This document shows, in pieces, positions 481 through 20,977 of a stretch of DNA of 32,000 nucleotides. The stretch is from an uncultured archaeon (GTDB lineage: Archaea > Asgardarchaeota > Thorarchaeia > Thorarchaeales > Thorarchaeaceae): NCBI GenBank assembly GCA_964354495.1, contig CAYHAA010000010.1:1-32000 (forward strand), read 5' to 3'. The notes beneath the pieces are model-generated. The model was not told the DNA's origin. It searched no databases and was given only the letters and a program-made list of their open reading frames with translations. Both the position numbers and the translations under genes were made by a program. Every line of letters begins with the position of its first letter. Positions within the stretch are counted from its first letter, which is position 1.

Positions 481-536
481 CAGTATAGTCAAGAAACGCA
501 CACAAGAGTATTGATTAGGAAGGTAATAGACTTCGT

Positions 537-1916
537 TTGAGGGAAACCGCCTTGGTGGCGCGAGAGCCAATAGTCACATCAATCATTCTGATATTATGTT
601 TGGCAGGATGTTATCCATTCTCGCCAGTGAATCATCAGCTGCAATCAATCGCGCTTGCTGATGAAGAATCTGTTCAGTCTGCCAATACTCATGAGGCAAG
701 TTCCGCAGCAGTAGTCATCGTTAATTCTGATGCCTACTTCAACACGTCAGGTTGGACAGGAAATGGAACCATCGACAATCCATATTTGCTTGCCAACAAG
801 ACGATAGAAGGAGAACGGTGTATTGAGATAGCAGATACGAGATGTCATTTCAGAATCGAGAATTGTACACTGGATGCAGTATACTACGGCATTATTCTTT
901 TCAATGTCACTAATGCTGTTCTGATTGACTGCATAGTGAATTCTGAACAATTATGCATCGCTCTTCTTCTGGTAACAAATGTGAATGTATCGCGAAATTC
1001 GATCTATTCTGGTGAAAGGGGAATTGAAGTGGAGCAGTCCAGTCAATGTGGCATAACCAACAATAGCATTGAGGCATATAGTACTGGACTTAGACTAGAT
1101 TTCTTAAATCAGTGTTACATAGAAAACAATTCGGTATCTTGCCGCATTGAAGAAGACCTGGCCATCTCACATAGTACTAATATCACAATCATCGATAATA
1201 CGTTTCTAGGAGGAATCTGTGGGTTATCATCTCGAGGAAGTCACGACTGCGATGTATTCAATAATACGATAGCCAGCAATGGATACGCAATTCTTGTTCG
1301 CGAATCATCAAACAATTCCATTATCGGCAACCAATTTGGCAGCGTAGAGGGTGAAACAGCTCTTGATGACGGAACTGATAATTCGTGGGACAATGGAATA
1401 TCTGTAGGAAATGCATGGCTTGACTATCAAGGGTCTGGAGAATATCAAATACCTGGATCGGCGAATAGTGTCGACCATTTCCCAACGAAGTTCAACCCAC
1501 CATTTCCGATGGATTTTGATGGCCCAACTATTGATGCGTCTCTCGGTGTTCTTTTTGTGGATTTCATCGATGAACTGCCTACCTCATGGGGATTTTGGGC
1601 CACCGTGAGTGACCCTTCCGGAGTCGACACAGTCATCATAACCGTGAATGGAGAATCTCATGTAATGAGCCATCGACCGACCACTGAGAATCCGGACCTC
1701 TACATCTATGACTATCCCAATCCAAGTTTTATGAGTCATTCCTACTGGGCAAATGATAGTCTAGGCCATTCATCAGCGACCGGAGAGGGCTTTATTTCAC
1801 TGGGTGTTATGCAGGGGCGAAGGCCAGATTCGGGAATGCTATACCTGACAATCGGTGGTTCTCTGGTGTCTATCGTAGCCATTGCTGTGTTGCTACGACG
1901 ACTAAAGCGAAAGTAG
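537..1916 (+). CDS. NosD-like right-handed parallel beta-helix surface protein, copy 1
   Basis: N-terminal hydrophobic segment ending LAGC; GNGTIDNPY motif; periodic I-x-N-N/N-x-I repeats; Ig-like ATVSDPSGVDTVII segment; C-terminal TM plus RRLKRK. Confidence 0.85.
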   Translation: MRETALVAREPIVTSIILILCLAGCYPFSPVNHQLQSIALADEESVQSANTHEASSAAVVIVNSDAYFNTSGWTGNGTIDNPYLLANKTIEGERCIEIADTRCHFRIENCTLDAVYYGIILFNVTNAVLIDCIVNSEQLCIALLLVTNVNVSRNSIYSGERGIEVEQSSQCGITNNSIEAYSTGLRLDFLNQCYIENNSVSCRIEEDLAISHSTNITIIDNTFLGGICGLSSRGSHDCDVFNNTIASNGYAILVRESSNNSIIGNQFGSVEGETALDDGTDNSWDNGISVGNAWLDYQGSGEYQIPGSANSVDHFPTKFNPPFPMDFDGPTIDASLGVLFVDFIDELPTSWGFWATVSDPSGVDTVIITVNGESHVMSHRPTTENPDLYIYDYPNPSFMSHSYWANDSLGHSSATGEGFISLGVMQGRRPDSGMLYLTIGGSLVSIVAIAVLLRRLKRK

Positions 1917-1945
1917 CTGATGCTAATCAGTGATTCATTGTCTGC

Positions 1946-2075
1946 ACGATTTGGAAATTCGCAGAAGGAGAAGAGATTTGGCAACATGAACCAACTCTTT
2001 CGAATAGTAGGCTGCTTCATGTTCTTGACCCATTCATAGACTGGTTCGCATAGTTCCTTCATGCAAGACGCTCTT
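1946..2075. repeat. Junction repeat R1
   Basis: + TGGAAATTCGCAGAA (WKFAE) at 1952; bulged inverted repeat 1972-1998; - strand MKELCEPVYEWVKNMK. Confidence 0.85.
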
Positions 2076-2317
2076 CATTGAGGGGACTTGTCTTTCAATT
2101 CGTATTCGGAGCGCATTTTCTCAAGTCTCTTTCGATCTTCATAGGTCTTGTAAACACCAACAGCTACTGCACAAGGACCAACAGTACGGACTCTGGGTCG
2201 TTTTTTATGGTGTATCCAGATTTTGTCTGTTCTACGAGTTCTTGAGTCTCCACCAATTATCAGGATGAATAATACAGCTGCAAATCCAGCAGAGAGTAGA
2301 ATCAGACCTAATTCCAT
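2075..2317 (-). CDS. Small single-TM protein (80 aa), copy 1
   Basis: MELGLILLSAGFAAVLFILIIGG...; near-identical copy at 18820-19062 with the same length and frame. Confidence 0.7.
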   Translation of the reverse strand: MELGLILLSAGFAAVLFILIIGGDSRTRRTDKIWIHHKKRPRVRTVGPCAVAVGVYKTYEDRKRLEKMRSEYELKDKSPQ

Positions 2318-2350
2318 AAGTGACTGGTACTCTAGAGTAATAAAAACGTC

Positions 2351-2674
2351 ATGAATAAAGCAGAGTTCTATCATCAGAACCCAAATCTGATTGCGGTTGA
2401 TGAATACCGCAGATTTGTCGCATTCTGTTTGCATAGATTGGATCCACTACCAAGTATTGCAGAGATGGAGGCGCAGGGAGTGCATTCAGATTCTAGAAAC
2501 CTGACACTGGAAACAGCCCTCCTCTCAGAGGGTCAAAGGCGAGTAGTAAGACATCAGCCAAATCTGATTTGTGTGGTTGAGATTGATGTATCAGACCCCA
2601 TGAATCAGTTTCTTGAATCTGCAGGCTTCGTTCGAACAGTGACAATAAATCTATGGGGTAAGATAGTTGATTGA
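2351..2674 (+). CDS. Hypothetical ORF, possibly a GNAT-like remnant
   Basis: C-terminal PMNQFLESAGF resembles the GNAT motif A/B end; otherwise unsupported. Confidence 0.25.
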   Translation: MNKAEFYHQNPNLIAVDEYRRFVAFCLHRLDPLPSIAEMEAQGVHSDSRNLTLETALLSEGQRRVVRHQPNLICVVEIDVSDPMNQFLESAGFVRTVTINLWGKIVD

Positions 2675-2747
2675 GCGGAATTGCAAATGAAAAAAAAAGA
2701 TGAAAACAATCTGAGGGGTTTTTCATTCAGCTCTTTCATGTTGAGAA

Positions 2748-3152
2748 TCAAATAGGATCTATCACATCGATTTCAGGCACACGATTGAAGGCTTGATCGT
2801 GAGTCATGAGCTCACTTATTCCCTCAATTGACATGGTTGCCAAAATTGTGGCATCTCGTCCACCAATTCCAAGATGAGTGAATTCACCAAGTTTCGTCAG
2901 TGTCAAATCAACTATTTCCTCATATATGCCATAAAGTGGCATCCCATAGCTCAGAAAGACTCTTGCCTTCTTTGTTCCCTCAAGAGAGCCCAAACGTTTC
3001 ACAAGATAGTGTAAAGTTTCAACAACGATGGTCGCATTGACTGCTGCTTGATTCTTCTTCAATGCGGCCTCAACAGGTTTGATGACTTTACTATGTTCTG
3101 GAAGACTTGCATCAAAGTAGTACGCCCAGATGTTGCTGTCTATGAGCATCAT
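2748..3152 (-). CDS. vapC: PIN-domain VapC toxin
   Basis: MLIDSNIW N-terminal PIN motif, VVETL, GGRDATILA, LMTHDQAF; ATGA overlap with the upstream antitoxin. Confidence 0.9.
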   Translation of the reverse strand: MMLIDSNIWAYYFDASLPEHSKVIKPVEAALKKNQAAVNATIVVETLHYLVKRLGSLEGTKKARVFLSYGMPLYGIYEEIVDLTLTKLGEFTHLGIGGRDATILATMSIEGISELMTHDQAFNRVPEIDVIDPI

Positions 3153-3382
3153 GGTACTGCTCTCCAGATCTCCCTTAGCCGTAGTGGATCAACGTCACCC
3201 TTCACACTGATACACCCTCGGAGTTCTGTGATGAAGTCACTCAAATCAATGGCCTTCTCAATCTTTACTCCATTCTTCCCCGCGGTTATGCGTACGCGAG
3301 CTTTTGGCTTGAGACCTGTCTTTTCACGTAGTTCTTTTGGAATGGTCACTCTTCCTCGTTCGTCTATCTCTTCTATGCCCAT
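3149..3382 (-). CDS. vapB: AbrB/MazE/SpoVT-family antitoxin (VapB)
   Basis: IDERGRVTIPKELREKTGLKP AbrB signature; coupled to vapC. Confidence 0.88.
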   Translation of the reverse strand: MGIEEIDERGRVTIPKELREKTGLKPKARVRITAGKNGVKIEKAIDLSDFITELRGCISVKGDVDPLRLREIWRAVP

Positions 3383-3434
3383 TTGATTACCCACACCCAC
3401 TCATATTCCAACAGTTATCAATCTTGCGGCTGTG

Positions 3435-3530
3435 CGGAAGTTCCCTGAAAAGAAAAGATGATGAGCCGGTTGTCGCAGACTTCCATCTCATTCAAGCAAC
3501 CATATCATTTCATGGTCTTGGCCCATTTGA
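3435..3530. repeat. Junction repeat R2 (eroded)
   Basis: + CGGAAGTTCCCTGAA (WKFxE-like); degenerate GAGCCGG-N13-CCATCTC at 3463-3489; - strand KWAKTMK* at 3506-3530. Confidence 0.7.
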
Positions 3531-3596
3531 AGACATAATCGAACGAATTCCACCAAGATTATTACCGAAAGGAATCTTAGAACTTGTGGGAGTTCC

Positions 3597-4217
3597 ATGA
3601 AGACATACCTAGGTACTGGCATTTCTTTTATAATCGTCGTGATGTTGGCGTCACCACTTTCAAACGTGGGAGCACCTATTGCAAACAATCACACGTCTCC
3701 ACTATCCATCTTTCATGAGTGCCAATCCTCGGGCCCTTCGTTCGACCTTACGCTCTTGCCTGCTTTTGCAGATCTAGTTCCCGGTACTGAACCTGTGAAC
3801 TTGACTCTTGAACTCAGAGTTGGAGTGACAGATCCTGATGGTGTGAGTGTGGTCATCGGAAGTTACAAGAATCATTCGAGCAGCGAGTGGGCCAATGTCT
3901 CAATGAGTCGAGATGCTTCTACAGGTAATCCAGATGACTTTGTGGCATGGCCTCTCAATTACATGATTATTGAACCATCCTTTGTATTCATCTGGGACAT
4001 CAAATTTCATGCAAATGATACTCTAGGCATTTGGAACGCCTCTGAATTGCGTCAGATTTCGATATGCAGACAAGGCGCTACAGGTACCACAACTGATTTC
4101 CCCTTTGTTCCACTTGTCATGGCTGCAGGTTCTGTGGCTGTAATTCTGCCAGTACTCTACTTGGCGTATCGACGAAGAGCAGTTGTGCGGTCCGTCGGTA
4201 CAGAGAATTCAGACTAA
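3597..4217 (+). CDS. Secreted/membrane-anchored protein with Ig-like domain
   Basis: N-terminal signal, VGVTDPDGVSVV segment similar to the NosD C-terminal domain, C-terminal TM plus YRRR. Confidence 0.75.
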   Translation: MKTYLGTGISFIIVVMLASPLSNVGAPIANNHTSPLSIFHECQSSGPSFDLTLLPAFADLVPGTEPVNLTLELRVGVTDPDGVSVVIGSYKNHSSSEWANVSMSRDASTGNPDDFVAWPLNYMIIEPSFVFIWDIKFHANDTLGIWNASELRQISICRQGATGTTTDFPFVPLVMAAGSVAVILPVLYLAYRRRAVVRSVGTENSD

Positions 4218-4303
4218 AAGAAGAAAGAGAGAGTCGGCAGGAACTGCCAACTCAGGTGATCTCTGATTCCATTTCATTGTCTTGACCCAATCATAGACAG
4301 GCA
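4218..4303. repeat. Junction repeat R3
   Basis: Hairpin GAGTCGGCAG-GAA-CTGCCAACTC at 4231-4253; - strand PVYDWVKTMK. Confidence 0.8.
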
Positions 4304-4563
4304 CACGTTGAGTGACATGAGTCTTCTCTGGCACATCATCTTCTAGTCGTAAACGATGCCAAATACGTGTGTCTGGTTTTACGATGTTCCAACCCATTAC
4401 TCCTCACGATTGTCATCATTTCTTAGTGTTATGATTTGGGATTCCATATAGACAACAGATAACGCATGTATAACCGTGAGCTTGGTTTCATGTCCAGTCC
4501 TCTCAAGACTCCATTGAAAGACCTACGTAGGCGAGTTGGCATAAGTTCGCTGGTGATGGCGAC

Positions 4564-4779
4564 TCAATTATCACATTCTAGAACATGCTCTTTCCGTTTC
4601 AATAGTTTGACTGCAATTACCAAGTTAATCAAGCCCCAAAGCATGGCTTGGAAGCCTATTCCTTGGAGAAGAAGAACAAAAGAGAAGAAATACAGTGGAA
4701 TGCCAACTATGATACTTGCAATACACCAGATTAGCAGCGTATTTCCGAGTGTCTTGTTGAGATTCTCAATAGAAGTCAA
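4564..4779 (-). CDS. Small membrane protein, possibly truncated
   Basis: AGGAGG upstream of the TTG start; two hydrophobic helices (LLIWCIASIIVG; GIGFQAMLWGLINLVIA). Confidence 0.55.
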   Translation of the reverse strand: MTSIENLNKTLGNTLLIWCIASIIVGIPLYFFSFVLLLQGIGFQAMLWGLINLVIAVKLLKRKEHVLECDN

Positions 4780-4867
4780 GAGCTTCGCCTCCTGAATGGT
4801 AACTTGGTTTTCATATCTAAGTTTGTCGTAATGGTCTCCAACTCATTCAGCTCATTGATTCGTACAA

Positions 4868-5108
4868 ACATGGAAAAGATGCAAATTGGAAGTCTGAATG
4901 AGAAAAGGAAGAAGGATGAACTGGTTGTCGCGTGACTCACAGCCAGTTCACATTTAGATCGTTTCATGGTCTTGACCCATTCGATGACCGGCTGACAGAG
5001 TTCTTTGATTCGCTCTTTCTCGGGGGTCATCAGACCGGGCTTCCAGCCATCTGCTGGTTCGAACCACCAGTCTGTAACGATACTCTGCTGTTGGTCCCTT
5101 GGTCTTCA
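4868..5108. repeat. Junction repeat R4
   Basis: + HGKDANWKSE*; 12-bp stem at 4917-4950; - strand RPRDQQQSIVTDWWFEPADGWKPGLMTPEKERIKELCQPVIEWVKTMK. Confidence 0.9.
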
Positions 5109-5215
5109 TTCTATTCTGGCGCATAAAAGAATTCCAGAAATATATTGGAAACCTGATTATCCGATTAGGCTAATCAGGTATCCATGAGATAGCAAAGTAC
5201 TATTGGAATATGACT

Positions 5216-6040
5216 CTAGAAAGGAGCAAATATCCCTGCAAATACAATCCAAGCTAGTAGGGTCTTTGCAACAAGACTCAGCACTATATACATCCGTTCT
5301 CCATAGAGATAGTCTTTCCACTTGCTAACCTTCTTGTACTGAAGTACCATGTTCAGTGCGAAGATATTGAAGAGGAAGAAGTACATGAAGATTATAATGT
5401 ACACAAATGTTGGGGGTCCAGTTTCTGCAGCACCTATCGCTGCAGCAAAGTATCCAGACAGCACGAGCCAAGGTGTGAATCCAGCAATACATCCTAAGAT
5501 GAAAGGGCTCCATATAGTCTTCTCAGTGTATTGATTGACTAGCTCCATAAGATAACCAAACATTATCATCATGGTATTTAGAACTACAATCATCACCAAT
5601 GACCATAGATCCCAAATTCCTAATAGAAAAGTGATAAGAAAGATCATCACTGAACTTGACACCGAGTATTCATACCATCGATACGGATTCATTCCCTTCT
5701 GAAGCTTCGCGACATATTTGTCATTTAATGGATATGCAATCAGAAAGTGTGCTAATGCAGACATCAATGGAAATGATGCCAGAATGACACCGATGTTCGT
5801 CAATGTGAACAAGACCGCAGGCGTTGGTTGAACAAGAAACTCGAAGGGGTCTAGGCTGACAATTTCAAAATCCAGATAGATTGTATAGATATCCTGCTCC
5901 CATGCAAGGGTCAAGCCCAAGAAGAGCATCAATATTCCAGTTATTAGATGAAGCACTCCGGCATAGAGATTGAACTTTTTCAGATATGAGAAAGAAATCG
6001 GTGAGCCAGAAGACTTCTCCATCATCTCATCCACAGTCAT
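5216..6040 (-). CDS. Heliorhodopsin
   Basis: Seven-TM pattern; GVLHLITG and ALAHFL (conserved His residues), NPYRWYEYSVSSSVM helix C, LSLVAKTLLAW retinal-binding Lys motif. Confidence 0.93.
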   Translation of the reverse strand: MTVDEMMEKSSGSPISFSYLKKFNLYAGVLHLITGILMLFLGLTLAWEQDIYTIYLDFEIVSLDPFEFLVQPTPAVLFTLTNIGVILASFPLMSALAHFLIAYPLNDKYVAKLQKGMNPYRWYEYSVSSSVMIFLITFLLGIWDLWSLVMIVVLNTMMIMFGYLMELVNQYTEKTIWSPFILGCIAGFTPWLVLSGYFAAAIGAAETGPPTFVYIIIFMYFFLFNIFALNMVLQYKKVSKWKDYLYGERMYIVLSLVAKTLLAWIVFAGIFAPF

Positions 6041-6189
6041 AGTAATCGCTAATATAACGCAGAGATGAAATATTAATCCAATGGTATGCTTAAATTCTGT
6101 TAAGATAATCTCGACTTGGTCACTGAAAAGAGAAGCCCAAATCTCACTTGGTTACAGACATCTTGCCAACAGAATTCTTCGTTTTCTTT

Positions 6190-6551
6190 TTCTAGGATTT
6201 GAAAATTGCAGTCTATACTTTGCATCATGTATATCGAATCTTGCATCCGAAGGCAGCCATATGATATACCATGATTCGATTTACGATGTGATGATTGAGC
6301 CATTTCCAGATTATGAGCACGATTTCAGGCCTGCAAAAGGTATCGTTTCATACATGTAGTTTCTGATGGCTTGTGACGGGATAATTCAGAAATATCGATT
6401 CACCTCATATCAAGAATTACATTGGCTTCTTCATCATGGAAAAAGGACCAATTGGAAGTTTGAGTAAAAAGAAGAGAGAGGAGTAGGCATGCAGAGCCAA
6501 CTCTGCAATGGATAATATTATTTCATAGTCTTGATCCATTCAGTGACGGTT
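6190..6551. repeat. Junction repeat R5 with a long gene X pseudogene arm (6190-6467)
   Basis: + ENCSLYFASCISNLASEGSHMIYHDSIYDVMIEPFP...SYM*FLMACDGIIQKYRFTSYQELHWLLHHGKRTNWKFE* (one internal TAG at 6357); inverted repeat 6481-6503; - strand VTEWIKTMK*. Confidence 0.9.
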
Positions 6552-6610
6552 TACGTTGTTCGAACGATTGATGTCTGAGAGGAATCCAAAATCCCTCGAG
6601 GCAAACTGAG

Positions 6611-7396
6611 TTGATAGTAGACTTACCAGCTGGACTTAGAGAATCTGGTGCAATCGGAGTCAGAGAAAGACTCGGAACTATCTCTGGCGGAGATATCCTC
6701 GATGTAGGCACAGAAGAGGGCGACTTCATTACCACGTTGATGAAGACTCTGAGGGGATACAACTCATTCGTAGGAATAGACATCTCAGCAGATGACTTGA
6801 AGAAAGCAAGAGAGCGATTCAAAGACGCTCTAGTGGATTTGATGGAAATGAATGCTGAAACGATGTCATTTCCCGACAATCATTTTGATACAGTGTGTAT
6901 CTCATACTCAATCCATCACCTAAGGAATATTGATACTGTACTAGCTGAGATGTATCGCGTGTTGAGACCCGGAGGCAATTTCATCATCCAGGAATTGTAT
7001 TCTGATGGGGAACAGACTGAGGCTCAGCGATTGGACAGGGATATACATAATCTGAATGTAAGGATCGATACCATCTTAGGCATCCCTCATTTCAAGGCTT
7101 TAACTCGTCAGAGATTAAGAGACTCAGTCAACAAGGTAGGTCTGAGTGCTGTAGAGATCTATGAGTCCTCATGGTCTGTCAAATGCCTATTCTGTGAAGA
7201 TGCACCCGATTGTGAAGACCCGCTCAGGAAGGAGCATGTCGACTTAGTAACAAAGGAGATTGATGCTGATTTGGCTCGAATAAGTGATCATCCGTCTTAT
7301 GATGAATTGAGTAAAGAGGGAGAATCGCTCAAAGAGAGAGTCAGAGTTACAGGGTCATCTGCAGCATCTGTGATGTATTTCTTCGGAAAGAAGTAG
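6611..7396 (+). CDS. Class I SAM-dependent methyltransferase, copy 1
   Basis: ILDVGTEEG motif I, GIDIS, FPDNHFDTV, YRVLRPGG; C-terminal CLFC-x4-C. Confidence 0.9.
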   Translation: MIVDLPAGLRESGAIGVRERLGTISGGDILDVGTEEGDFITTLMKTLRGYNSFVGIDISADDLKKARERFKDALVDLMEMNAETMSFPDNHFDTVCISYSIHHLRNIDTVLAEMYRVLRPGGNFIIQELYSDGEQTEAQRLDRDIHNLNVRIDTILGIPHFKALTRQRLRDSVNKVGLSAVEIYESSWSVKCLFCEDAPDCEDPLRKEHVDLVTKEIDADLARISDHPSYDELSKEGESLKERVRVTGSSAASVMYFFGKK

Positions 7397-7424
7397 TGTC
7401 AAAACGAAATCCAAGTCAGTGCTT

Positions 7425-7625
7425 TTCAGGTTTCATGCCAAGAGTTGCACGAATTCCTCTGGCAGGGCAAAGATACAGAGTGGACATTTGAAGAAAAATG
7501 AAGGAATGAGGGGAAAAATATCGTTCTTCCCACTTGTTCAGTATGGAATTACTTCATCGTCTGGACCCATTCATAGACAGGTTCGCATAATTCCTTCATA
7601 CGCTCTTTCTCGTGGGTCATTGAAC
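7425..7625. repeat. Junction repeat R6
   Basis: + QELHEFLWQGKDTEWTFEEK*; - strand MTHEKERMKELCEPVYEWVQTMK*. Confidence 0.9.
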
Positions 7626-7706
7626 CAAGTTCTCGGCTGTTTGAAGGCCAAGAACAATATTTGGATGAGATTAATAGACTCTATGAGGAATCTGAGTCTG
7701 ATACCC

Positions 7707-7868
7707 ATGTTATTTACTGCGGTCATTTCGCGCGAGGGAAGACTTTACGTAGCTCTTGCACCTGATGTGGATGTAGCAAGTCAAGGGGAAACAATCGAAG
7801 AAGCCCTTGCTAATCTCAAGGAAGCCTTAGAGCTGTATTTCGAGGACGATGACACCATTGACTCATAG
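7707..7868 (+). CDS. hicB: HicB-family (UPF0150) antitoxin-like protein, orphan
   Basis: MLFTAVISREGRLYVALAPDVDVASQGETIEEALANLKEALELYFE; the longer track ORF 7419-7868 is run-on through R6. Confidence 0.8.
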   Translation: MLFTAVISREGRLYVALAPDVDVASQGETIEEALANLKEALELYFEDDDTIDS

Positions 7869-7870
7869 AT

Positions 7871-8263
7871 TCAGTTGGATGTTCCTTTCAAATAATTCTG
7901 GATTGCTCTAACAAACTCCGGAGCATCAACTAAGAGGGAATCAATTGATTTCCATACTATTTTGAAATCGATATCTAGATACTGATGCACCAACACGTTT
8001 CTCATCGCAACCACCTTTTGCAGATTCGAAGAAAGACTAGCAGAGATGATGTGATTATTAGCCAGAATCTCTATTGTGCCCTTGTAGGTGTCGCTTATCC
8101 CGTAGTGTTTCTGAGCTACGACATGACTGCAGATATCGATTATGGATTGGGCTATGGTTTCAATAGCTCTTGCTGTCGATCTCAGGCTCTTCCCATCACT
8201 TAGAAATTCCTTGCGATTCTGTTTCTTGATTGTCTTTAGGAATTCAACCTCCTCCAGAATCAT
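7871..8263 (-). CDS. HEPN/DUF86 (HepT-like) RNase toxin
   Basis: AIETIAQSIIDICSH and RNVLVHQY (Rx4H); frame is open upstream to a CTG at 8302 preceded by AGGAGG, so the true start is probably earlier. Confidence 0.88.
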   Translation of the reverse strand: MILEEVEFLKTIKKQNRKEFLSDGKSLRSTARAIETIAQSIIDICSHVVAQKHYGISDTYKGTIEILANNHIISASLSSNLQKVVAMRNVLVHQYLDIDFKIVWKSIDSLLVDAPEFVRAIQNYLKGTSN

Positions 8264-8291
8264 TGCCAGCCTTCGTTCGACAACAACTGTA

Positions 8292-8720
8292 TCAAGTCCC
8301 AGTCTGAATGCCTCCTAAGGTCTCTTTGAGTAGACGTTGCTCAAAAATACGATAATCAGGATAATGTATGAGGACTTCTTCGATGAAATCAGACCAAGAA
8401 TCATCATCCTTCTGAAAAAGCACGACACCATCCCTTGCGATTCGATATCGTAGAGCCCAGTTTGCATCCTCTATGAGAACAACATCAACTGCAAGGGCGG
8501 GTCCTTCCAATTCGGAGATGATCTGAAGTCGGAGATTGAATCGCTTCTCTCCGTCCTTCTCTGTTGTACCAATAGCAATATCGAGATCGCTGTGTTCGGA
8601 GTGGTCACCACGGGCCCTGGAACCAAACAATACAATGAGACTGATACTATCTGGCGCAACCTCCAGAACTCTCTGCGCAATCTCATTGTGGTCGAGCGTT
8701 GGAAACCCCTCTTGGTTGTT
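8292..8720 (-). CDS. Minimal nucleotidyltransferase (MntA-like antitoxin), start uncertain
   Basis: VLFGSRARGDHSEHSDLDIAI motif and VDVVL; frame open to 8720 without an ATG; adjacent to the HEPN gene. Confidence 0.85.
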   Translation of the reverse strand, partial: NNQEGFPTLDHNEIAQRVLEVAPDSISLIVLFGSRARGDHSEHSDLDIAIGTTEKDGEKRFNLRLQIISELEGPALAVDVVLIEDANWALRYRIARDGVVLFQKDDDSWSDFIEEVLIHYPDYRIFEQRLLKETLGGIQTGT

Positions 8721-8862: not shown

Positions 8863-9975
8863 ATGACGCCTGGAAAGAGAATTCGCATCACAGTAATCCT
8901 CATTATGGCTGGATGCATTTCTGCTGTTTTTGTTAGCATTGAGACCCATCCGGTGGGGTATGATGTTGCGGCTGAGGGAGATTTCGTGTACGTATCGAAC
9001 AATGATGGTGTAGTGGTTATCGACAAAAGCGTCTACAATGCACCAGTGCGAGTGGCGAATGTACCCATGAGTGACGGTGCTTTTGGATTAGACATAGAAA
9101 ACGACAGACTGTACGCTGCAGGAAGTTCAAGCGGCCTCGTTATTGTTGATATTAGTATTCCAACAAGTCCCGTAATTCTCGGAGATGTTCCTTTGGGTGT
9201 TGCAACCAATGTCTTTGTTTCTGGAAACTGTGCCTATGTAGTAAATGCCGACGGAGAACTTGGCATTGTTGATGTATCTAACTCATCTGACCCACTAATA
9301 CTTGGAACGTTGGACGTTGGCTCAAGAGGAAGTGATGTAGCAGTCGCAGGAAATACCGCGTATTTTGCGGATCCTGATAGTGGCCTTGTTGTAATTGACG
9401 TGAGTGAGCCTTCATCTCCGGGCATCATTCAAACCCTGTCCAACACGCATGGAGCTTGGGATATTTGTATCTACGAAGACATCCTGTATCTCGGGTGTCA
9501 TGGAAACGGCCTCAGAGTGTTCAACATGTCATCCCCAGAAGATCCAACGTGGCTCAGTTCGTTTGATAATGGTGGAGAAGTCTACGGTGTTTCCGGAAAC
9601 CGAGAGTATCTTGTATTGGCGGATTTGCAGGAAGGCGCTGAATTACTGGATGTTACAGACCTCAGAAATCCAGTGTTAGTTGCCGAGTATAGTAATGCAG
9701 CACCACATTCCGTATATTTTGACGGAAAGTATGCATACCTGGGCGATCAAGACAAAGAGTTCATCCTAATCGACTTCGATGCTGATGAACCAATTGGTTA
9801 CCCATCCCGCAGCCTGAATGTCAACTTGCTATGGGCAATCCCGATTATATTGCTCTCGATAGGAGTCTCGGTCATAGTCGTACCAGTCGTTGGAGCGAGA
9901 ATGAAGAGCTGGAGGTCACTTGGCCGCCAGCTCATGAAGATACTACTTGCTTCATTGTCTTGGCCCATTCGATGA
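8863..9975 (+). CDS. LVIVD-repeat beta-propeller membrane-anchored protein
   Basis: Repeats GLVIVDISIPTSP, GIVDVSNSSDP, GLVVIDVSEPSSP, GLRVFNMSSPEDP; N-terminal signal and C-terminal TM; last about 25 codons run through R7. Confidence 0.88.
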   Translation: MTPGKRIRITVILIMAGCISAVFVSIETHPVGYDVAAEGDFVYVSNNDGVVVIDKSVYNAPVRVANVPMSDGAFGLDIENDRLYAAGSSSGLVIVDISIPTSPVILGDVPLGVATNVFVSGNCAYVVNADGELGIVDVSNSSDPLILGTLDVGSRGSDVAVAGNTAYFADPDSGLVVIDVSEPSSPGIIQTLSNTHGAWDICIYEDILYLGCHGNGLRVFNMSSPEDPTWLSSFDNGGEVYGVSGNREYLVLADLQEGAELLDVTDLRNPVLVAEYSNAAPHSVYFDGKYAYLGDQDKEFILIDFDADEPIGYPSRSLNVNLLWAIPIILLSIGVSVIVVPVVGARMKSWRSLGRQLMKILLASLSWPIR

Positions 9976-10042
9976 CAGGTTGACAGAGATCCTTGATTCG
10001 CTCTTTCTTGGGATTCATTGGACCGGGCTCCCAGTCATCATC
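9890..10042. repeat. Junction repeat R7
   Basis: GAGCTGG-N14-CCAGCTC at 9906-9933; - strand DDWEPGPMNPKKERIKDLCQPVIEWAKTMK. Confidence 0.88.
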
Positions 10043-11791: not shown

Positions 11792-12361
11792 TCAGAGAGA
11801 GATTTCTGCTTTTCTTCTTGACCTCGAGTTATTTAGTGAATTACTATTCATTGTAATCATATCCCTGTGTTTCTTCGACAATAAAACCAGTTTCGGAACC
11901 GGGTAATATCGTACAGAAAATCCCAATGCAATGAAAACTAAACCTGTACCTAAGACCCTCAATTGTGGAATTCTATGAAGGACATAAATCTGACTGGGAG
12001 CGTAGCCAGATTGATTGAAAGGTCTAACCAATAAAACATACAACCCGGGAGATCCAAGGTCAACAGGACCAGAATACTCACTTATATTCACTAGACTGAA
12101 TACAATTGTTACGTTTTCGATTGGAGTCCCATCAATGAATCTAAAACTCTCTTCGATAGTCATGAAATAGAGAGAGATTGGTATTGGGTGTCGCATAGTA
12201 ACTATCAGATAGGGATCATCGGGACATTGCAGCAGATGTATAACGGAATAACCTTCAGGAGGATCGTCATACGTTGATAAGATGTAACTTGGAATGAATG
12301 AAATCATACTAAGGACAATTCCAAGTACGAAGAGCGATTTCCAAAGATGCTCATTCTCCAC
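11792..12361 (-). CDS. Two-TM membrane protein, tandem paralog A
   Basis: N- and C-terminal TMs; shares blocks with 12365-12883. Confidence 0.75.
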   Translation of the reverse strand: MENEHLWKSLFVLGIVLSMISFIPSYILSTYDDPPEGYSVIHLLQCPDDPYLIVTMRHPIPISLYFMTIEESFRFIDGTPIENVTIVFSLVNISEYSGPVDLGSPGLYVLLVRPFNQSGYAPSQIYVLHRIPQLRVLGTGLVFIALGFSVRYYPVPKLVLLSKKHRDMITMNSNSLNNSRSRRKAEISL

Positions 12362-12364
12362 TAT

Positions 12365-12883
12365 TCAAACCTCCACCCTTCGAGACGCCAAAATACTATG
12401 GAACAATACTAATACACTAAATATGATGAAGACAAAACCTGTACCTAAGACCCTCAATTGTGGAGTTTCACGAAAGACAGTCATTGAGTAACCCAAGTAA
12501 TCATATTCAATTGTAGATTCAGATTGATTGAAAGTCGTAATAAAGAGAACATACAACCCGGGAGATCCAAGGTCAACAGGACCAGAATACTCACTTATGT
12601 TCACTAGACTGAATACAATTGTTACGTTTTCGATTGGAGTCCCATCAATGAATCTAAAACTCTCTTCGATACTCATGAAATAGAGAGAGATCAGCCTATC
12701 ATTTTGCACATCCACAATCAGATATGGATTCTCTAAACATTGGAACAAGTGTCCTCTATATGCAGAAGTATCATAAATAAGAATTCCCCCGTTTTCCGAT
12801 GAAAGAATACCTTTGCTGAAGGAAATCATTACCAAGACAATTCCAAGTACGAAGAGCGATTTCCAAAGATGCTCTCTCTCCAC
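12365..12883 (-). CDS. Two-TM membrane protein, tandem paralog B
   Basis: MEREHLWKSLFVLGIVL; operonic with the ABC genes. Confidence 0.75.
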   Translation of the reverse strand: MEREHLWKSLFVLGIVLVMISFSKGILSSENGGILIYDTSAYRGHLFQCLENPYLIVDVQNDRLISLYFMSIEESFRFIDGTPIENVTIVFSLVNISEYSGPVDLGSPGLYVLFITTFNQSESTIEYDYLGYSMTVFRETPQLRVLGTGFVFIIFSVLVLFHSILASRRVEV

Positions 12884-12886
12884 TAT

Positions 12887-14678: not shown

Positions 14679-14820
14679 TTGGATGATAGCTGCAGATATA
14701 TGATCGTATACGTTCTCCTAATTAGCGGATGATTTGAAAAGTTCATGGAGTGAGATGGGAGGTGACTTCTCACAAAGTCTAAAACAAACCTCCCAAATCC
14801 GAAGAATCAGATTTCTTGGT

Positions 14821-15733: not shown

Positions 15734-16117
15734 GTGCAATACCGAATGAAAAGAATACGAACCCCCTCGAAGAAATTGCAGGAGAGTCTCTTCCATGTTA
15801 TTCTGGAGGTTAAGCCTGCGGTCATCATTGGTAGGAAACAGAGAATAAAGATGACTCATGGAACATATGTCATTGAGGACATACCTCACCCAAAAAATAA
15901 ATCACCAGAAGGACTGAGAATCTATGCATCACTACCAGCAACGAATATCGATAGAGCAATGGAACCGGCAAGAGGAGTCGCTAACATACTCCAAAATCAA
16001 TTCACCGTCCTGACAAAAACATCCATTCCTGAGTTGCTTATCATGAAAGCATATGATGTGACACCAGGAAGGAAATTTATCCAATACTTCGAACGTTTTA
16101 TTTATCATAGACAATAG
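15734..16117 (+). CDS. Hypothetical protein
   Basis: ORF only; no recognisable motif. Confidence 0.3.
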   Translation: MQYRMKRIRTPSKKLQESLFHVILEVKPAVIIGRKQRIKMTHGTYVIEDIPHPKNKSPEGLRIYASLPATNIDRAMEPARGVANILQNQFTVLTKTSIPELLIMKAYDVTPGRKFIQYFERFIYHRQ

Positions 16118-16246
16118 CCATGTTTCTTTTCTTGTACACACAGACTTCTTTCCCACTAGAGGATGTGAGTCTGAGGTCCATACCATTCTGCCATACTTTC
16201 ATACTGTCTAATATCTCTCTACCTTCTTCGTTGGTCAAATATTCAG

Positions 16247-16897
16247 CTATCTCACGTACATCAGCATCATCAATACCGCTATTGCAGAGGTCACTTCCAC
16301 GCCCCTTCCGACGGTCTCGAATAGGCTCTCCTCTAGCCAGCGAGCTCTCTCACTACCGTCTTTCTCCTTGGGAACAAGCCAAGCCCATACACTATAGACT
16401 GTTTCTGGAGTCACCATTGTATATAGTCCTTCCATATGCTTACGAAATCGAACAACCTTGGAATGCGTCTTGTCCGTTCCTTCTATTCTGACATGTATTC
16501 TATGAGTTTCTTTCAATTCGTTCATGTATTCGATAAACATGCTAGATATTAGATTGACAATCTCTAGATACTGATTTCCGTCGCGAGTGATCTCGTCGCT
16601 ACTAGGAACGAACTCCTCAATGACTCTATCGATCATTTTGTGAACATCGCTTCTCTGTAGATCATAAGGATACCATTTCTTGTACTCAAACTCTTTCTGA
16701 CGATCCTGTGCACTATAAATCTGGTTCTCAACGAAAGTCACGAAGTCTCGTATCCATTCTTCGATGATGGTTATGATATCTTCCTTTGAAATCCCAAGTC
16801 CTTGGAGATATTCTAATGATTTTTGTTTTTGTTCACGCCGCCGATTCTCCATAGCATGACTAGAGTCGGAAAACGCAATTATTGGTTTCGTAATCAT
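16247..16897 (-). CDS. Hypothetical helical protein
   Basis: 216-aa ORF with protein-like composition; no family recognised. Confidence 0.55.
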   Translation of the reverse strand: MITKPIIAFSDSSHAMENRRREQKQKSLEYLQGLGISKEDIITIIEEWIRDFVTFVENQIYSAQDRQKEFEYKKWYPYDLQRSDVHKMIDRVIEEFVPSSDEITRDGNQYLEIVNLISSMFIEYMNELKETHRIHVRIEGTDKTHSKVVRFRKHMEGLYTMVTPETVYSVWAWLVPKEKDGSERARWLEESLFETVGRGVEVTSAIAVLMMLMYVR

Positions 16898-16955
16898 CTC
16901 AATACGTGATATACATGGTAGATGATAGCGTCACAGCCAAGATTGACGAGTTCTC

Positions 16956-17105
16956 TGTGAGGTTGTGATGCAGACCTATCACTTCACATCAGTGCGAGAA
17001 CTCCATGAATTCCTGTGGCATGGCAAAGAAACGAATTGGAAATTCGAATGAAAAGAAGACCGTGAGCTAGAGTCTAAGTCTCTCAGCTTATTTTCGTTTT
17101 TTGAT
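16956..17105. repeat. Junction repeat R8
   Basis: + CEVVMQTYHFTSVRELHEFLWHGKETNWKFE*; bulged inverted repeat 17063-17090; DUF35 arm nearly erased. Confidence 0.85.
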
Positions 17106-17165
17106 TTACGTTGTTCGAAGGATTGATGTCTAGGAAGAACCCAGATTCTCTCGAGGCAACCTGAG

Positions 17166-17951
17166 TTGATAGCAGACTTACCTGATGGACTTAGAGAATC
17201 TGGTGCAATCGAAGTCAGAGAAAAACTCGGAACTATCTCTGGCGGAGATATCCTCGATGTAGGCACACAGGAGGGTGACTTCATTGATACGTTGATGAAG
17301 ACTCTGAGGGGATACAAATCATTCGTAGGAATAGATATCTCAGCAGATGACTTGAAGAAAGCAAGAGAGCAATTCAAAGACGCTCCAGTGGATTTGATGG
17401 AAATGAATGCTGAAACGATGTCATTTCCAGACAATCATTTTGATACGGTGTGTATCTCATACTCAATCCATCACCTGGAGAACATTGACACTGTACTAGC
17501 TGAGATGCATCGCGTGTTGAAACCCGGATGCAATTTCATCATCCAAGAATTGTTTTCTGATGGAGAACAGACTGAAGCTCAGCGATTGGATAGGGATGTG
17601 CATAATCTGAATGTAAAGATCGACACCATCTTGGGCATCCCTCATTTCGAGGCCTTAACTCGTCAGAGATTGAAAGATGTAGTCAACAAGGTCGGTCTGA
17701 GTGCTGTAGAGATCTATGAGTCCTCATGGGCTGTCAAATGCCTATTCTGTGAAGATGCACCCGATTGCGAAAACCCACTGAGAAAGGAGCATGTTGACAT
17801 TGTGACAAAGGAGATTGATGCTGACTTGGCTCGAATAATTGATCATCCGTCTTATGATGAATTAAGGAAAGAGGGAGAATCAATCAAAGAGAAACTCAAA
17901 GTCACAGGGTCATCTGCAGCATCCGTGATGTATTTCTTCGGAAAGAAGTAG
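17166..17951 (+). CDS. Class I SAM-dependent methyltransferase, copy 2
   Basis: Same length (261 aa) and colinear with 6611-7396, including the flanks. Confidence 0.9.
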   Translation: MIADLPDGLRESGAIEVREKLGTISGGDILDVGTQEGDFIDTLMKTLRGYKSFVGIDISADDLKKAREQFKDAPVDLMEMNAETMSFPDNHFDTVCISYSIHHLENIDTVLAEMHRVLKPGCNFIIQELFSDGEQTEAQRLDRDVHNLNVKIDTILGIPHFEALTRQRLKDVVNKVGLSAVEIYESSWAVKCLFCEDAPDCENPLRKEHVDIVTKEIDADLARIIDHPSYDELRKEGESIKEKLKVTGSSAASVMYFFGKK

Positions 17952-17979
17952 TGTCAAAACGAAACCCGAGTTGCGGCTT

Positions 17980-18011
17980 TTCAGATTTCATGCCAAGAGT
18001 TGCACGAATTT
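17980..18011 (+). repeat. R8b: truncated gene X arm
   Basis: TTCAGATTTCATGCCAAGAGTTGCACGAATT, same as the start of R6 (QELHEF), then breaks off. Confidence 0.7.
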
Positions 18012-18059
18012 CAAGCATATCTCTACGAAGTAAGACCAACATGGTATAACCTGAAGATT

Positions 18060-18572
18060 TCAATCGTTCCGGGGAACACCATAGTATGTCCACATACTTA
18101 CAGGAGCACCCGCAAGTTTCAGGTACATCCACAACTGCATTTTGTGCATTGCTAGATGAGTTGTGATCTCCGGGATATAATGAGCCCAACTCTTTGGTAG
18201 CCCTTCTTGATCGAATGGCTTCAGACTGTTCTCCGTAAGCTTATCGTCGGAGAGTTTTGAGATGAATTCATGAATAGTCTCCATCCCTTTGTCATAGATT
18301 GCAAGCAGTTCATCAATCGTGCCCCTACGAAGCTCCTTTTCCATTGCATGGACTTCTTCAAAGTCATTGAATTGCATTGAGCAGAATTTTAGATCAATTG
18401 TTGGGATTTCAGCCAAATGATTAATCAAATCAATCAAAGAACGCATTTCATCTCGGGGTTTGAAATTAAGATCAGAACCTATAGCAGCCGCCATGACAAA
18501 TCTAGTTTGACGACTCTCATGATCTATCATATCTAGTAGTATCTTAGAAATTGTACCCATGTCTAAAACCAT
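18060..18572 (-). CDS. DinB/YfiT-family protein
   Basis: LNFKPRDEMRSLIDLINHL and THLAMHKMQLWMYLKLAG with the family His triad pattern; start uncertain (18572 or 18560). Confidence 0.85.
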   Translation of the reverse strand: MVLDMGTISKILLDMIDHESRQTRFVMAAAIGSDLNFKPRDEMRSLIDLINHLAEIPTIDLKFCSMQFNDFEEVHAMEKELRRGTIDELLAIYDKGMETIHEFISKLSDDKLTENSLKPFDQEGLPKSWAHYIPEITTHLAMHKMQLWMYLKLAGAPVSMWTYYGVPRND

Positions 18573-18625
18573 GCGACTACAAACCGAACACGTACTTGAC
18601 AATTACGCTCGTTTTGTACGAGAGG

Positions 18626-18820
18626 TGTCGCTTCACATCAGTACAAGAACTTCATGAGTTCCTATGGCATGGAAGAGATACAAAGTGGAAGTTCGCTGAA
18701 GAATAAAAGTGGCAGAGCTGGAAGTCACAAGACAACCAGCTCTTGGGATTATCAGGTTGCTTCATTGTCTTGACCCATTCATAGACTAGAGCGCAGAGTT
18801 CCTTCATGCAAGACGCTCTT
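18626..18820. repeat. Junction repeat R9
   Basis: + CRFTSVQELHEFLWHGRDTKWKFAEE*; AGAGCTGG-N14-CCAGCTCT at 18714-18743; - strand MKELCALVYEWVKTMK. Confidence 0.92.
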
Positions 18821-19062
18821 CATTCAGGGGACTTGTCCTTCAATTCGTACTCGGAGCGCATTTTCTCAAGTCTCTTTCGATCCTCATAGGTCTTGTAAAC
18901 TCCAACAGCTACTGCACAAGGACCAACAGTACGGACTCTCCGTCGCTTCTTATGGTGTATCAAGGTTTTGTCTGTTCCACGAGCTCTTGAGTCTCTACCA
19001 ATTATCAGGACAAATACTGCAATTGCTAATCCAGCAGAGAGTAGAATCAGACCTAATTCCAT
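18820..19062 (-). CDS. Small single-TM protein (80 aa), copy 2
   Basis: Paralog of 2075-2317 with the same junction to the repeat. Confidence 0.7.
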   Translation of the reverse strand: MELGLILLSAGLAIAVFVLIIGRDSRARGTDKTLIHHKKRRRVRTVGPCAVAVGVYKTYEDRKRLEKMRSEYELKDKSPE

Positions 19063-19397
19063 AAGTGATACGTATGCTAGAGTGATAAAAATATCATGAA
19101 TAAAGCAGGAGTGAGAGTGAGTTGCACAACACACGCTCTGAGAAGCTCACTCGCTTCTTTGGATTCTCCAGGTCTGAAATACATCGTATAGAGGATTCTT
19201 GATGACCTCGATTTGATCGATCTAGGGTTGGAAAGTAAGAGATGAAGAGCTGATCGTCGTCTAAGAAGCGCACACAAGAGGATTGATTAGGAAAGCAATA
19301 GACTTGATTTGAGGGAAATCTGCTGCTGGCGCGAGAGTCAATAGTCGCATCAATTGTTCTGATATTATGTCTGGCAGGATGTTATCCAATCTCGCCA

Positions 19398-20687
19398 GTG
19401 AAACATCAGCTGCAACTAGTCGCGCTTGCTGAAGAGGAGTCTTTTCAGTCTGAAAATAACCATGAGGCAAGCTCCGCAGCAGTGGTCATCGTGAATTCGG
19501 ATGACGATTTCAACACATCAGGTTGGACAGGAAATGGAACAATCGACAATCCGTATGTGCTTGCCAATAAGACGATAGAAGGCGAGCGTTGTATTCAGAT
19601 AGAAGATACGCGTTGTCATTTCAGGATCGAGAATTGTACACTGGATGCAGTCTACTATGGCATTACTCTCTTCAATGCCACTAATGCTGTTTTGATTGAC
19701 TGCACCATAGACTCTGAACAATTGTGCATATCTGTACATTTGGTGACAAATGCAAGTATTCTACATAATTCAATCTATTCAGCTGAAAGGGGGATTGAAA
19801 TTGAACAGTCGAGTCTATGCGGCGTGGTCAATAACAGCATTGAAACACGTTGTACTGGAGTTGCTCTGTTTTTTTCAGGTCAGTGCCACATCGCGAACAA
19901 TTCAGTATCATGTAGCATTGAAGAGAACTTGGTCCTCTCGAAAAGCAATAGTACTAGTGTCATAGAGAATACGTTTCTAGGGGGGGACAGCGGGCTATTT
20001 TCTTGGGAAAGCCACGATTGTGATATATTCAATAATACAATTGCCAGCAATGGATATGCAATTCATGTACGGGAATCATCAAACGGCTCCATTATTGGTA
20101 ACCAATTTGGTAGTGTAGCGGGTGAGACTGCTCTTGATGATGGAACCGATAATTCGTGGGATGATGGTGTATCTCTGGGAAATGCATGGCTTGATTATGA
20201 TGGGATTGGAGAATATCAAATACCTGGAATGGCCAATAGCATAGATCATTTTCCAACAAAGTTCGAACCACTGTTTCCGATGGATTTTGATGGTCCGTCT
20301 ATTAGTATTCCTTTCTATTTTGTCCATTTTGATTATATTGGTGAAATACCCGCCTCATACAGGTTTTGTGCCACTGTGACTGACCCATCCGAAGTGGACA
20401 CAGTCATCATCACTGTAAATGGAGGGGCTCACGTAATGAACCATCAACCCACCCCTGAGGATCCAGACCTCTATATCTTTGATTATCCCAATCCAGGTGC
20501 GATGAGGCACTCCTATTGGGCAAATGACAGTGTGGGGCATTCATCTGCTACCGAAGAGGGTTTTATTTCAATGGGGATCATTGCAGGTACCGTACAAGAT
20601 ACGGCGAGGCTATACATGACAATCGGTGGCCTTCTGGTGCTCGTCGGAGCCATTGTTGTATTAGTACGACGACTAAGGCCAAAGTAG
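19398..20687 (+). CDS. NosD-like beta-helix surface protein, copy 2 (5' end extends to about 19320, start disrupted or CTG)
   Basis: Colinear with 537-1916; signal peptide and LAGC are in frame upstream of 19398, but there is a 1-nt deletion relative to the TTG start of copy 1. Confidence 0.85.
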   Translation: MKHQLQLVALAEEESFQSENNHEASSAAVVIVNSDDDFNTSGWTGNGTIDNPYVLANKTIEGERCIQIEDTRCHFRIENCTLDAVYYGITLFNATNAVLIDCTIDSEQLCISVHLVTNASILHNSIYSAERGIEIEQSSLCGVVNNSIETRCTGVALFFSGQCHIANNSVSCSIEENLVLSKSNSTSVIENTFLGGDSGLFSWESHDCDIFNNTIASNGYAIHVRESSNGSIIGNQFGSVAGETALDDGTDNSWDDGVSLGNAWLDYDGIGEYQIPGMANSIDHFPTKFEPLFPMDFDGPSISIPFYFVHFDYIGEIPASYRFCATVTDPSEVDTVIITVNGGAHVMNHQPTPEDPDLYIFDYPNPGAMRHSYWANDSVGHSSATEEGFISMGIIAGTVQDTARLYMTIGGLLVLVGAIVVLVRRLRPK

Positions 20688-20715
20688 CTGATGCTAATCA
20701 ATGGTTCTCTGATGA

Positions 20716-20971
20716 CACGGTTTGGAAATTCGCAAAAAGAGGAGAGAGAGTTGGCGGCATGGAAGCCCACCAACTCCTTTGCCGGTTCTACCTCATCGTC
20801 TGAACCCATTCATACACAGGCTCGCAGAGCTTCTTCATGCGCTCCTCCTCGGGCGTCATCCCCACGCTTGGTTTCCAGCCCTCAGCTGGCTGGAAGCACC
20901 AATCGGCCCCTGTGCCCTGGCGCTCATTCCCTGGAATCCAGACCACTCCTACAGGCATGCCCGAACTCTGC
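20716..20971. repeat. Junction repeat R10
   Basis: + TGGAAATTCGCA; GAGTTGG-N15-CCAACTC at 20748-20776; - strand GMPVGVVWIPGNERQGTGADWCFQPAEGWKPSVGMTPEEERMKKLCEPVYEWVQTMR*. Confidence 0.92.
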
Positions 20972-20977
20972 TTCTCC

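Follow-up and report, generated by a model that had tools for sequence, protein, structure and literature searches.

Comparison with Described Island and Cassette Systems

Additive flexible genomic islands, the tycheposon-built islands of Prochlorococcus, integrons and the pdif modules of Acinetobacter plasmids are the known systems with which we compared a repeat-rich array found in an uncultured Thorarchaeota archaeon (GenBank assembly GCA_964354495.1). The analysed window, 32,000 nucleotides (nt) in length, is the first 32 kb of contig CAYHAA010000010.1 (hereafter C10) of this metagenome-assembled genome (MAG), here termed G000 (3.3 Mb, 51 contigs, 97.7% complete). Behind an operon made of a thiolase and a DUF35 gene, small cassettes are separated by direct copies of a ≈100-nt repeat, designated R, which contains the tail of the DUF35 gene. 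We consider it fairly probable that the locus is a hotspot at which insertions accumulate additively, and that recombination inside the repeats, probably of the homologous type, exchanges the cassettes. Little is understood of how Asgard archaea, the nearest relatives of eukaryotes known so far, acquire and shuffle their genes; the locus provides a concrete and recurrent route, with small cassettes for heliorhodopsin, toxin-antitoxin pairs, surface proteins, a methyltransferase and a DinB-family protein moving between Thorarchaeota species into one site and being re-sorted at repeats built from a host gene's own tail and terminator, no integrase having been detected. It is also a testable case of a cassette mobility that may rest on homologous recombination alone, and the ≈100-nt signature of R can be used to find such arrays in other genomes.

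As in additive flexible genomic islands, a fixed chromosomal hotspot lies by a conserved gene, a direct repeat of the 3′ part of the target accompanies each added cassette, cassette number and order are independent of the core phylogeny, and near-identical cassettes occur in different species. Indeed, of the features by which such islands are recognised, the fixed position, the flanking direct repeats of the target and cassettes more alike than the core genes were all found. Integrase-bearing elements were not: a search with the tyrosine recombinase model PF00589 gave no match in G000, and its matches in 8 of the 28 genomes of the genus all lay off the array contigs. The array differs from these islands in its target, which is formed by a protein-coding gene (the DUF35 tail with its terminator) and not by a tRNA or tmRNA gene, in its Asgard host, in the density of very small cassettes (0.5–3 kb, with at least 11 repeats in 32 kb) and in the lack of a detectable integrase.

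Prochlorococcus islands built by tycheposons (10.1101/2020.12.28.424599) resemble the array in that serial integrations at one site displace older inserts inward, leaving partial target copies and degraded remnants, and in a cargo of niche-adaptation and defence genes. The tycheposons themselves bring a tyrosine recombinase along with a replication module and have tRNA genes as their targets (10.1101/2020.12.28.424599), whereas no tyrosine recombinase, replication module or tRNA target was found here.

Integrons and clusters of attC sites lacking integron integrases (CALINs), including the archaeal ones (PMC9668308), likewise consist of short cassettes separated by a hairpin-bearing repeat, with toxin-antitoxin and DinB-type cargo, and undergo reordering and duplication. 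On the contrary, no IntI gene is present here, G000 giving no PF00589 match, and the conserved side of the array is not IntI with attI but the thiolase–DUF35 operon. Moreover, R derives by copying from the tail of a host gene, and the switch points do not fall at one fixed base. The attC sites are imperfect palindromes with R″/L″ and L′/R′ boxes (RYYYAAC ... GTTRRRY); R has a covarying hairpin of 7–9 bp (stem GAGCTGG/CCAGCTC or variants), in which no conserved AAC/GTT boxes were seen by eye. Integron cassettes are mostly promoterless single open reading frames (ORFs) in one orientation, whereas here the cargo is encoded on both strands, its genes retain upstream regions of their own, and several cassettes carry two genes.

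The pdif modules of Acinetobacter plasmids are small, often hold toxin-antitoxin or resistance genes, and occur in varied orders between short recombination sites, namely 28-bp XerC/XerD sites in alternating orientation. The repeats described here differ in being ≈100 nt long, all direct and coding-derived, with no Xer-type recombinase detected.

Composition of Repeat R

The intact counterparts of R are found at the far end of the window and beyond it. Gene X, encoding 192 amino acids (aa), occupies C10 positions 31593–32171 on the + strand, thus running past the window end, and is followed by the intact DUF35 gene on the − strand (32220–33032; 270 aa, with a zinc ribbon and an OB fold), to which the thiolase gene (33035–34312) adjoins; the intact repeat together with the DUF35 gene spans positions 32155–33032, outside the window. 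A full-length gene X paralogue with 27% identity is located at G000:C7:122615-123184, away from any repeat.

Each R comprises a DUF35 tail on the − strand (DUF35 arm) and a terminator-like hairpin with a purine run, often followed by the convergent tail of gene X on the + strand (gene-X arm, originally annotated as X arm or WKF arm). The minus-strand part corresponds to the C-terminus of the DUF35 protein (Pfam OB_ChsH2_C; consensus ...MTPEKERMKELCEPVYEWVKTMK), of which translated searches detected the last 9 to 126 codons, and the plus-strand part to the C-terminus of gene X (...YRFTSVQELHEFLWHGK.TNWKF). The purine run and the hairpin stand between the two coding tails in every copy. Read on the DUF35 strand, the order is stop codon, 15–20 nt, hairpin and T-rich run, the last two resembling a terminator. 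The minimal core kept by all copies consists of the purine run, the hairpin, a linker and ≈27 nt of the DUF35 tail. By using a profile of the ≈100-nt repeat core, nhmmer retrieved 11 copies (E-values from 1e-17 to 1e-26), all on the + strand of C10 between 1950 and 32255, and no convincing copy elsewhere in the 3.3-Mb genome (best outside match, E = 0.017). At least four decayed remnants were recognised by eye or by weak scores, at 408–490, ≈2680–2745, 17035–17104 and 19228–19262. Variation in the DUF35 arms sits at the third codon positions of the minus frame (entropy 6.4, versus 2.5 and 3.5 at the other positions), indicating that the arms are copies of functional genes. Neither Rfam at gathering threshold nor the tRNA scan gave any match in the window; R is thus neither a known RNA gene nor a tRNA target.

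Covariation of the hairpin was tested on 67 repeats from many genomes with the structure supplied by hand; RNAalifold predicted zero pairs on the same 67 repeats, because of loop-length gaps. The stem covaries, 82% of the cells being paired versus 37–49% when the partner is slid, and changes on both sides were found in 59 cells versus 31 in shuffles, a value reached by 0 of 500 shuffles; one pair is CG in 34 sequences and UA in 20. The hairpin of R is under selection. The outer pairs (alignment columns 23–24 with 54–55) are often G-U on the + strand, that is C-A on the DUF35 strand, thus transcripts that arrive from the cassette side may be what the hairpin acts on, or it may function as DNA.

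Duplicated Cassettes with Exchanged Neighbours

Self-comparison of the window (blastn) identified a NosD pair with its repeat (491–2064 versus 19263–20840; 78.6% over 1587 nt), a pair made of the short DUF35 arm and the small transmembrane (TM) gene (1989–2363 versus 18734–19108; 88.8%) and a methyltransferase pair (6550–7455 versus 17105–18010; 91.2%). From the sequence alone, the initial annotation had proposed that these units were recombined at the repeats rather than copied as one block, and every specific point of the arrangement on which it relied was borne out by alignment. NosD1 (cassette 491–1949, +; surface protein encoded by ORF 537–1916, Pfam NosD E = 2e-20) and NosD2 (cassette 19263–20719, +; ORF 19398–20687) have a common 3′ flank through ...TGGAAATTCGCA, the end of the gene-X arm. 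Beyond this point, R1 (1950–2062) has a 48-nt DUF35 arm abutting the stop codon of the small TM gene, whereas R10 (20720–20974) has a 58-codon, 174-nt arm abutting a TPR gene (20978–22348, −). The same 48-nt arm with the small TM gene recurs at R9 (18621–18807), there behind a different, long gene-X arm, and the order NosD–R–small TM of the left is circularly permuted on the right. The small TM cassettes lie on the − strand at 2063–2680 (gene 2075–2434, −, with an additional ORF at 2351–2674, +; homology with copy 2 stops at 2363) and at 18808–19227 (gene 18820–19134). The methyltransferase cassettes, MT1 (6548–7455, +; ORF 6611–7396, with a 19-codon gene-X arm at its end) and MT2 (17105–18010, +; ORF 17166–17951), share the start junction (TTACGTTGTTCGAA) and the gene-X arm end (SCQELHEF...) and differ in their outer neighbours.

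The synonymous divergence (dS, Nei-Gojobori) is 0.69 for the NosD pair, 0.23 for the small TM pair and 0.22 for the methyltransferase pair. Since the NosD and small TM genes are adjacent at both places and yet differ in dS, duplication as one block, the alternative against which the initial proposal had been set, is excluded. The NosD pair is also a mosaic along its length, successive parts showing identities of 87%, 69%, 83% and 78%.

A five-way alignment showed that R1 tracks R10 in the NosD flank, at the gene-X end and in the spacer; starting at the DUF35 stop codon and on into the small TM gene, it tracks R9. The part of R9 that runs from the gene-X arm across the hairpin as far as CTTCATTGTCT is in turn 97% identical to R11, and what follows is R1-like. 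Both copies are clear chimeras in which the switch lies close to the stop codon of DUF35: R1 (nhmmer E = 3.5e-19) combines an R10-like gene-X end and spacer with hairpin and an R9-like 48-nt DUF35 arm, and R9 an R11-like left part and an R1-like DUF35 arm.

The limits of homology are informative as well. The NosD pair begins (491/19263) directly at repeat remnants in both copies, namely R0 (408–490, +), a decayed gene-X tail with an in-frame stop and the 3′ half of the hairpin, and R9b (19228–19262), which retains the gene-X end, the purine run and the 5′ hairpin half; it ends (2064/20840) inside the DUF35 arm. The left end of the small TM pair is inside R. The left end of the methyltransferase pair (6550/17105) is the end of the 27-nt DUF35 arm, partly deleted in copy 2, and its right end (7455/18010) is inside the gene-X arm. 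In MT2 this arm is cut after ...HEF, and the junction with the following DinB-family cassette (18010 to ≈18035) is a deletion that took out a repeat, because the gene-X arm continues at this position in metagenome contigs of relatives.

Exact repeats are short, reaching at most 43 nt between duplicated cassettes and about 31 nt or less between R copies, the longest in the window (72 nt) belonging to an unrelated gene pair at 11792–12883; mis-joins of the assembly at R are thus unlikely.

The Locus in Other Thorarchaeota

Within the genus, in which the thiolase–DUF35 operon belongs to the core, a DUF35 gene with an R-type tail was found in 23 of the 28 genomes, and in many of them additional copies of the tail lie from a few hundred to a few thousand bases behind the operon. 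The repeat profile revealed arrays of 2–5 R copies behind DUF35 in many Thorarchaeota assemblies, that of G000 being the largest seen. Every R copy of G000 lies on one side of the operon; all are in a single orientation, and direct repeats of the tail are likewise seen in other genomes. The region is hypervariable, no gene being common to more than 5 of 50 loci; cassette genes nevertheless recur behind DUF35 in other species and in other orders, including the methyltransferase, DinB, PIN/AbrB and HepT/MNT genes, the HicB-like ORF, a 206-aa membrane protein, the small TM gene and TPR. The comparison of gene order, suggested across strains in the initial annotation, returned the same cassettes beside other neighbours, in other species as well as in metagenome contigs.

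When G000 was compared with G014, G002 and two other species, dS was 0.14–0.5 for the methyltransferase and 0.24 for DinB, whereas thiolase and DUF35 gave 1.3–2.5 or were saturated. The cassettes have therefore spread horizontally between species into the DUF35 locus, long after these species split. MT1 differs from MT2 at least as much as the two differ from the methyltransferase copies of other species. The DUF35 arm of R4 (4962–5108), beside the heliorhodopsin gene, has 86.5% identity with a DUF35 gene from another species (L066) and only 77% with that of G000; this fits with cassettes carrying arms from former hosts, and hints at the donor lineage of the heliorhodopsin cassette.

Metagenome data were compared as consensus contigs, from runs containing at most 12% of the sampled words, the uncovered parts being uninformative. 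Wetland contigs with 90–97% identity join the small TM cassette via the repeat to the methyltransferase cassette, and a further one has a DUF35 arm directly before the DinB cassette (an R-DinB junction). In wetland contigs the gene-X arm runs on where MT2 of G000 is cut at 18010, and a metagenome contig has the full gene-X arm where G000 keeps only the 19228–19262 remnant, with its loose end at 19257.

Proposed Mechanism and Alternative Explanations

In the mechanism that we propose, the hotspot would be the 3′ end of the core thiolase–DUF35 operon of Thorarchaeota. One flank of each cassette is a copied DUF35 tail, whose length is cassette-specific (27 to 380 nt); the opposite flank is a copied DUF35 terminator hairpin with its purine run, in many cases together with a gene-X relic. 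Each junction between two cassettes thereby rebuilds one R. Since all copies are direct, any two of them can recombine, by which whole cassettes can be excised, inserted, duplicated or moved within the order, and R × R exchanges, within one genome or with incoming DNA of a relative, would generate duplicated cassettes with swapped neighbours. The length of the DUF35 arm is kept between genomes for each cassette type, with 27 nt for the methyltransferase and 48 nt for the small TM cassette (other cassettes have 72, 144 and 174 nt, and the large unit beside the intact site has 380 nt), which argues that each cassette was founded once, by an illegitimate event, and then spread through R. Such rare illegitimate joins would make new cassettes, and deletions would erode the repeats. 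The exchanges themselves would mostly occur by homologous recombination or gene conversion over the ≈100-nt repeat, with no dedicated site-specific recombinase.

This last point is favoured because no tyrosine recombinase is detectable and the switch points vary. PF00589 had no match in the 97.7%-complete G000, other recombinase families not having been searched genome-wide; in the genus, none of the genome matches mentioned above stands on an array contig and the other 20 genomes have none. Among the window proteins no recombinase was found by Pfam, nor by NCBIfam and PHROGs for those without assignment. The XerA-type chromosome resolvase likewise went undetected in G000 with the PF00589 model. 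For G014 versus R6 the switch is at the purine run, in R1 it falls between hairpin and stop codon, and in R9 at nt 8–12 of the DUF35 arm.

Several observations weigh against recombination at the repeats by homology. The recombination is read only from consensus contigs. The expectation that breakpoints fall at the repeats held for five of the six ends of homology; the right end of the small TM pair (2363/19108) is instead inside the cassette. The initial proposal of units re-sorted at repeats is largely supported, by the unequal dS, the chimeric R1 and R9, these five ends and the recurrence of the cassettes beside other neighbours in other species and metagenome contigs. In the methyltransferase tree, MT2 grouped with G014 and MT1 with G002 weakly, and by the approximately unbiased (AU) test a sister relationship of MT1 and MT2 was not rejected (p = 0.148); taken alone, the tree is thus no proof of independent acquisition. 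Furthermore, every repeat has the same minimal core, three independent cassettes stop at ≈27–30 nt of DUF35 arm, and no more than ≈25 nt separate the switch points of R1 and R9, both of which lie close to the stop codon of DUF35. The conserved core could mark a required protein-binding site and not mere homology, and, the genomes being MAGs, a mobile element bearing a recombinase may have been left unbinned.

The alternative that fares best, although we regard it as unlikely, is an integron-like site-specific system, in which R is attC-like and perhaps recognised through its hairpin, the recombinase being encoded elsewhere or on a passing mobile element. The conserved minimal core and covarying hairpin, the cassette-bound arm lengths, the close switches of R1 and R9, and the small size (0.5–3 kb) and integron-type cargo of the cassettes (toxin-antitoxin pairs, DinB, methyltransferase) would suit such a system, and attC clusters without integrase are reported to be enriched in Asgard archaea (PMC9668308). 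It has to be set against the failure to detect a tyrosine recombinase in G000, on any array contig or among the window proteins, a repeat that copies a host gene tail and terminator and by eye seems to lack the R″/R′ boxes of attC, cargo genes in both directions, and at least one switch point ≈65 nt away from the others. In addition, the R core was not found in the supplement of the archaeal integron paper, which does not by itself show whether its attC calls overlap the arrays. In a related reading, which we judge rather doubtful, the locus is a cassette-capture platform, integron-like without an integron integrase, whose "attC" is the copied host gene tail with its terminator hairpin. Exchange would then be driven by a recombinase or nuclease that has yet to be described, or the hairpin itself would drive it; a candidate driver could be the NUMOD3-HNH nuclease with 21 NUMOD3 repeats, by cutting the R core and thus inducing homing-like repair, and its gene adjoins the intact site both here and in G015.

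It is improbable that larger integrative elements integrated serially at the DUF35 tail and then decayed, so that the cassettes are immobile leftovers and their swapped neighbours result from independent integrations and deletions. The ≈9-kb unit with a HerA-like ATPase and an HNH nuclease adjoining the intact site, the presence of gene X and the HNH gene beside DUF35 also in G015, the long DUF35 arms of R4, R10 and R11, and the deletion from 18010 to ≈18035 that removed a repeat are what decay of this kind might leave. However, the 1-kb methyltransferase, DinB and toxin-antitoxin units recur across species with their own arm lengths, different neighbours and a dS far below that of the core genes, the chimeric R1 and R9 require exchange within R, and no integrase-bearing element was seen at the DUF35 site.

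A segmental or tandem duplication of the NosD–R–small TM block, with the methyltransferase duplicated separately and deletions afterwards, is very improbable: the circularly permuted order is what a partly deleted tandem duplication is expected to give, but the dS of NosD is three times that of the adjacent small TM gene, the left half of R9 is 97% identical to R11 and not to R1, and MT1 and MT2 are no less diverged from each other than either is from the copies of other species. Strain variants mis-joined at the repeats during assembly are scarcely credible, even for a repeat-rich MAG window starting at a contig end, given the short exact repeats reported above and the similar arrays in many independent assemblies.

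Organization of the Array and Its Cargo

Besides the duplicated units, the array holds a varied cargo, its units being mostly 0.5–3 kb long with an R-free block of ≈7 kb at 10.1–16.9 kb; the GC content of the island is ≈0.43, versus 0.48 for the whole genome. The genes encode two NosD-domain surface proteins, two small membrane proteins, PIN/AbrB and HepT/MNT toxin-antitoxin pairs, a HicB-like ORF, heliorhodopsin, two methyltransferases, a DinB-family protein, an LVIVD-repeat protein, a TPR protein and an ABC transporter block. At window positions 1–78, two 39-nt tandem units lie within an ORF running off the contig start. The array probably continues past this assembly break.

Downstream of the first small TM cassette, the degenerate remnant R1b (2680–2745; purine run, stem remnant and TTTCATGTTGAG, as read from the sequence) precedes a cassette with a PIN toxin and an AbrB/MazE-like antitoxin (2748–3400, −; Pfam), and L067 has the same pair between two repeats directly behind DUF35. 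R2 (3433–3535), with a minimal DUF35 arm of 27–30 nt, R3 (4203–4331), found by translated search and nhmmer profile, and R4 (4869–5108), whose DUF35 arm has 49 codons, are followed by the heliorhodopsin gene (5216–6040, −; Pfam E = 9e-90), a single-gene cassette. At 6186–6547, a gene-X pseudogene fragment (residues 100–191, with one TAG) runs into R5, which has a 27-nt DUF35 arm and precedes MT1. R6 (7433–7620) comprises a gene-X arm, a GAGGGGAA/TTCCC hairpin and a 72-nt DUF35 arm; next to it lie the HicB-like ORF and the HepT/MNT toxin-antitoxin pair (7650–8630; Pfam), which recur in L036, L069, L101 and L105. R7 (9885–10039) is overlapped by the 3′ end of the LVIVD-repeat gene (8863–9975).

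On the other side of the R-free block, R8a (16972–17104) shows a full gene-X arm, the hairpin and a DUF35 arm with an internal deletion of ≈15 nt (nhmmer E = 0.06), and leads into MT2. The DinB-family cassette that follows (18035–18620, −; ORF 18060–18602, Pfam DinB_2) has 90.6% nt identity with the copy of G002. R11 (22461–22933), the last repeat in the window, is made of a 10-codon gene-X arm, the spacer and a 126-codon DUF35 fragment 84% identical to the intact gene.

The unit closest to the intact DUF35 gene (22955–32000, +; ≈9 kb) lies between R11 and the intact repeat and encodes a protein of a defence-island family, a TPR protein, a Zn-finger-like protein, a membrane HerA-like ATPase, the NUMOD3x21-HNH nuclease and gene X. 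Its first ORF (22955–24796) has 613 aa, or 558 aa as called, and is a member of a widespread domain-free family of ≈550 aa, present in archaea and bacteria. Homologues neighbour TIR, AbiEi, SLFN/AlbA, NucS-like and MmeI-type restriction-modification genes, with no repeat nearby. The ORF, which stands beside R11, is a candidate defence gene; on account of these defence-island contexts without a nearby repeat it is regarded as cargo, and was rejected as an integrase. The 1028-aa membrane-anchored HerA/FtsK-like ATPase (26560–29646) has the same orientation as the NUMOD3-HNH nuclease; its assignment as CedD, the DNA-import ATPase, was not used, the 38-residue P-loop match being far below the cut-off.

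The pair of genes containing the longest exact repeat (11792–12883) consists of tandem paralogues of 189 and 172 aa without Pfam match, ≈77% identical at the DNA level, and adjoins an ABC ATPase and a permease.

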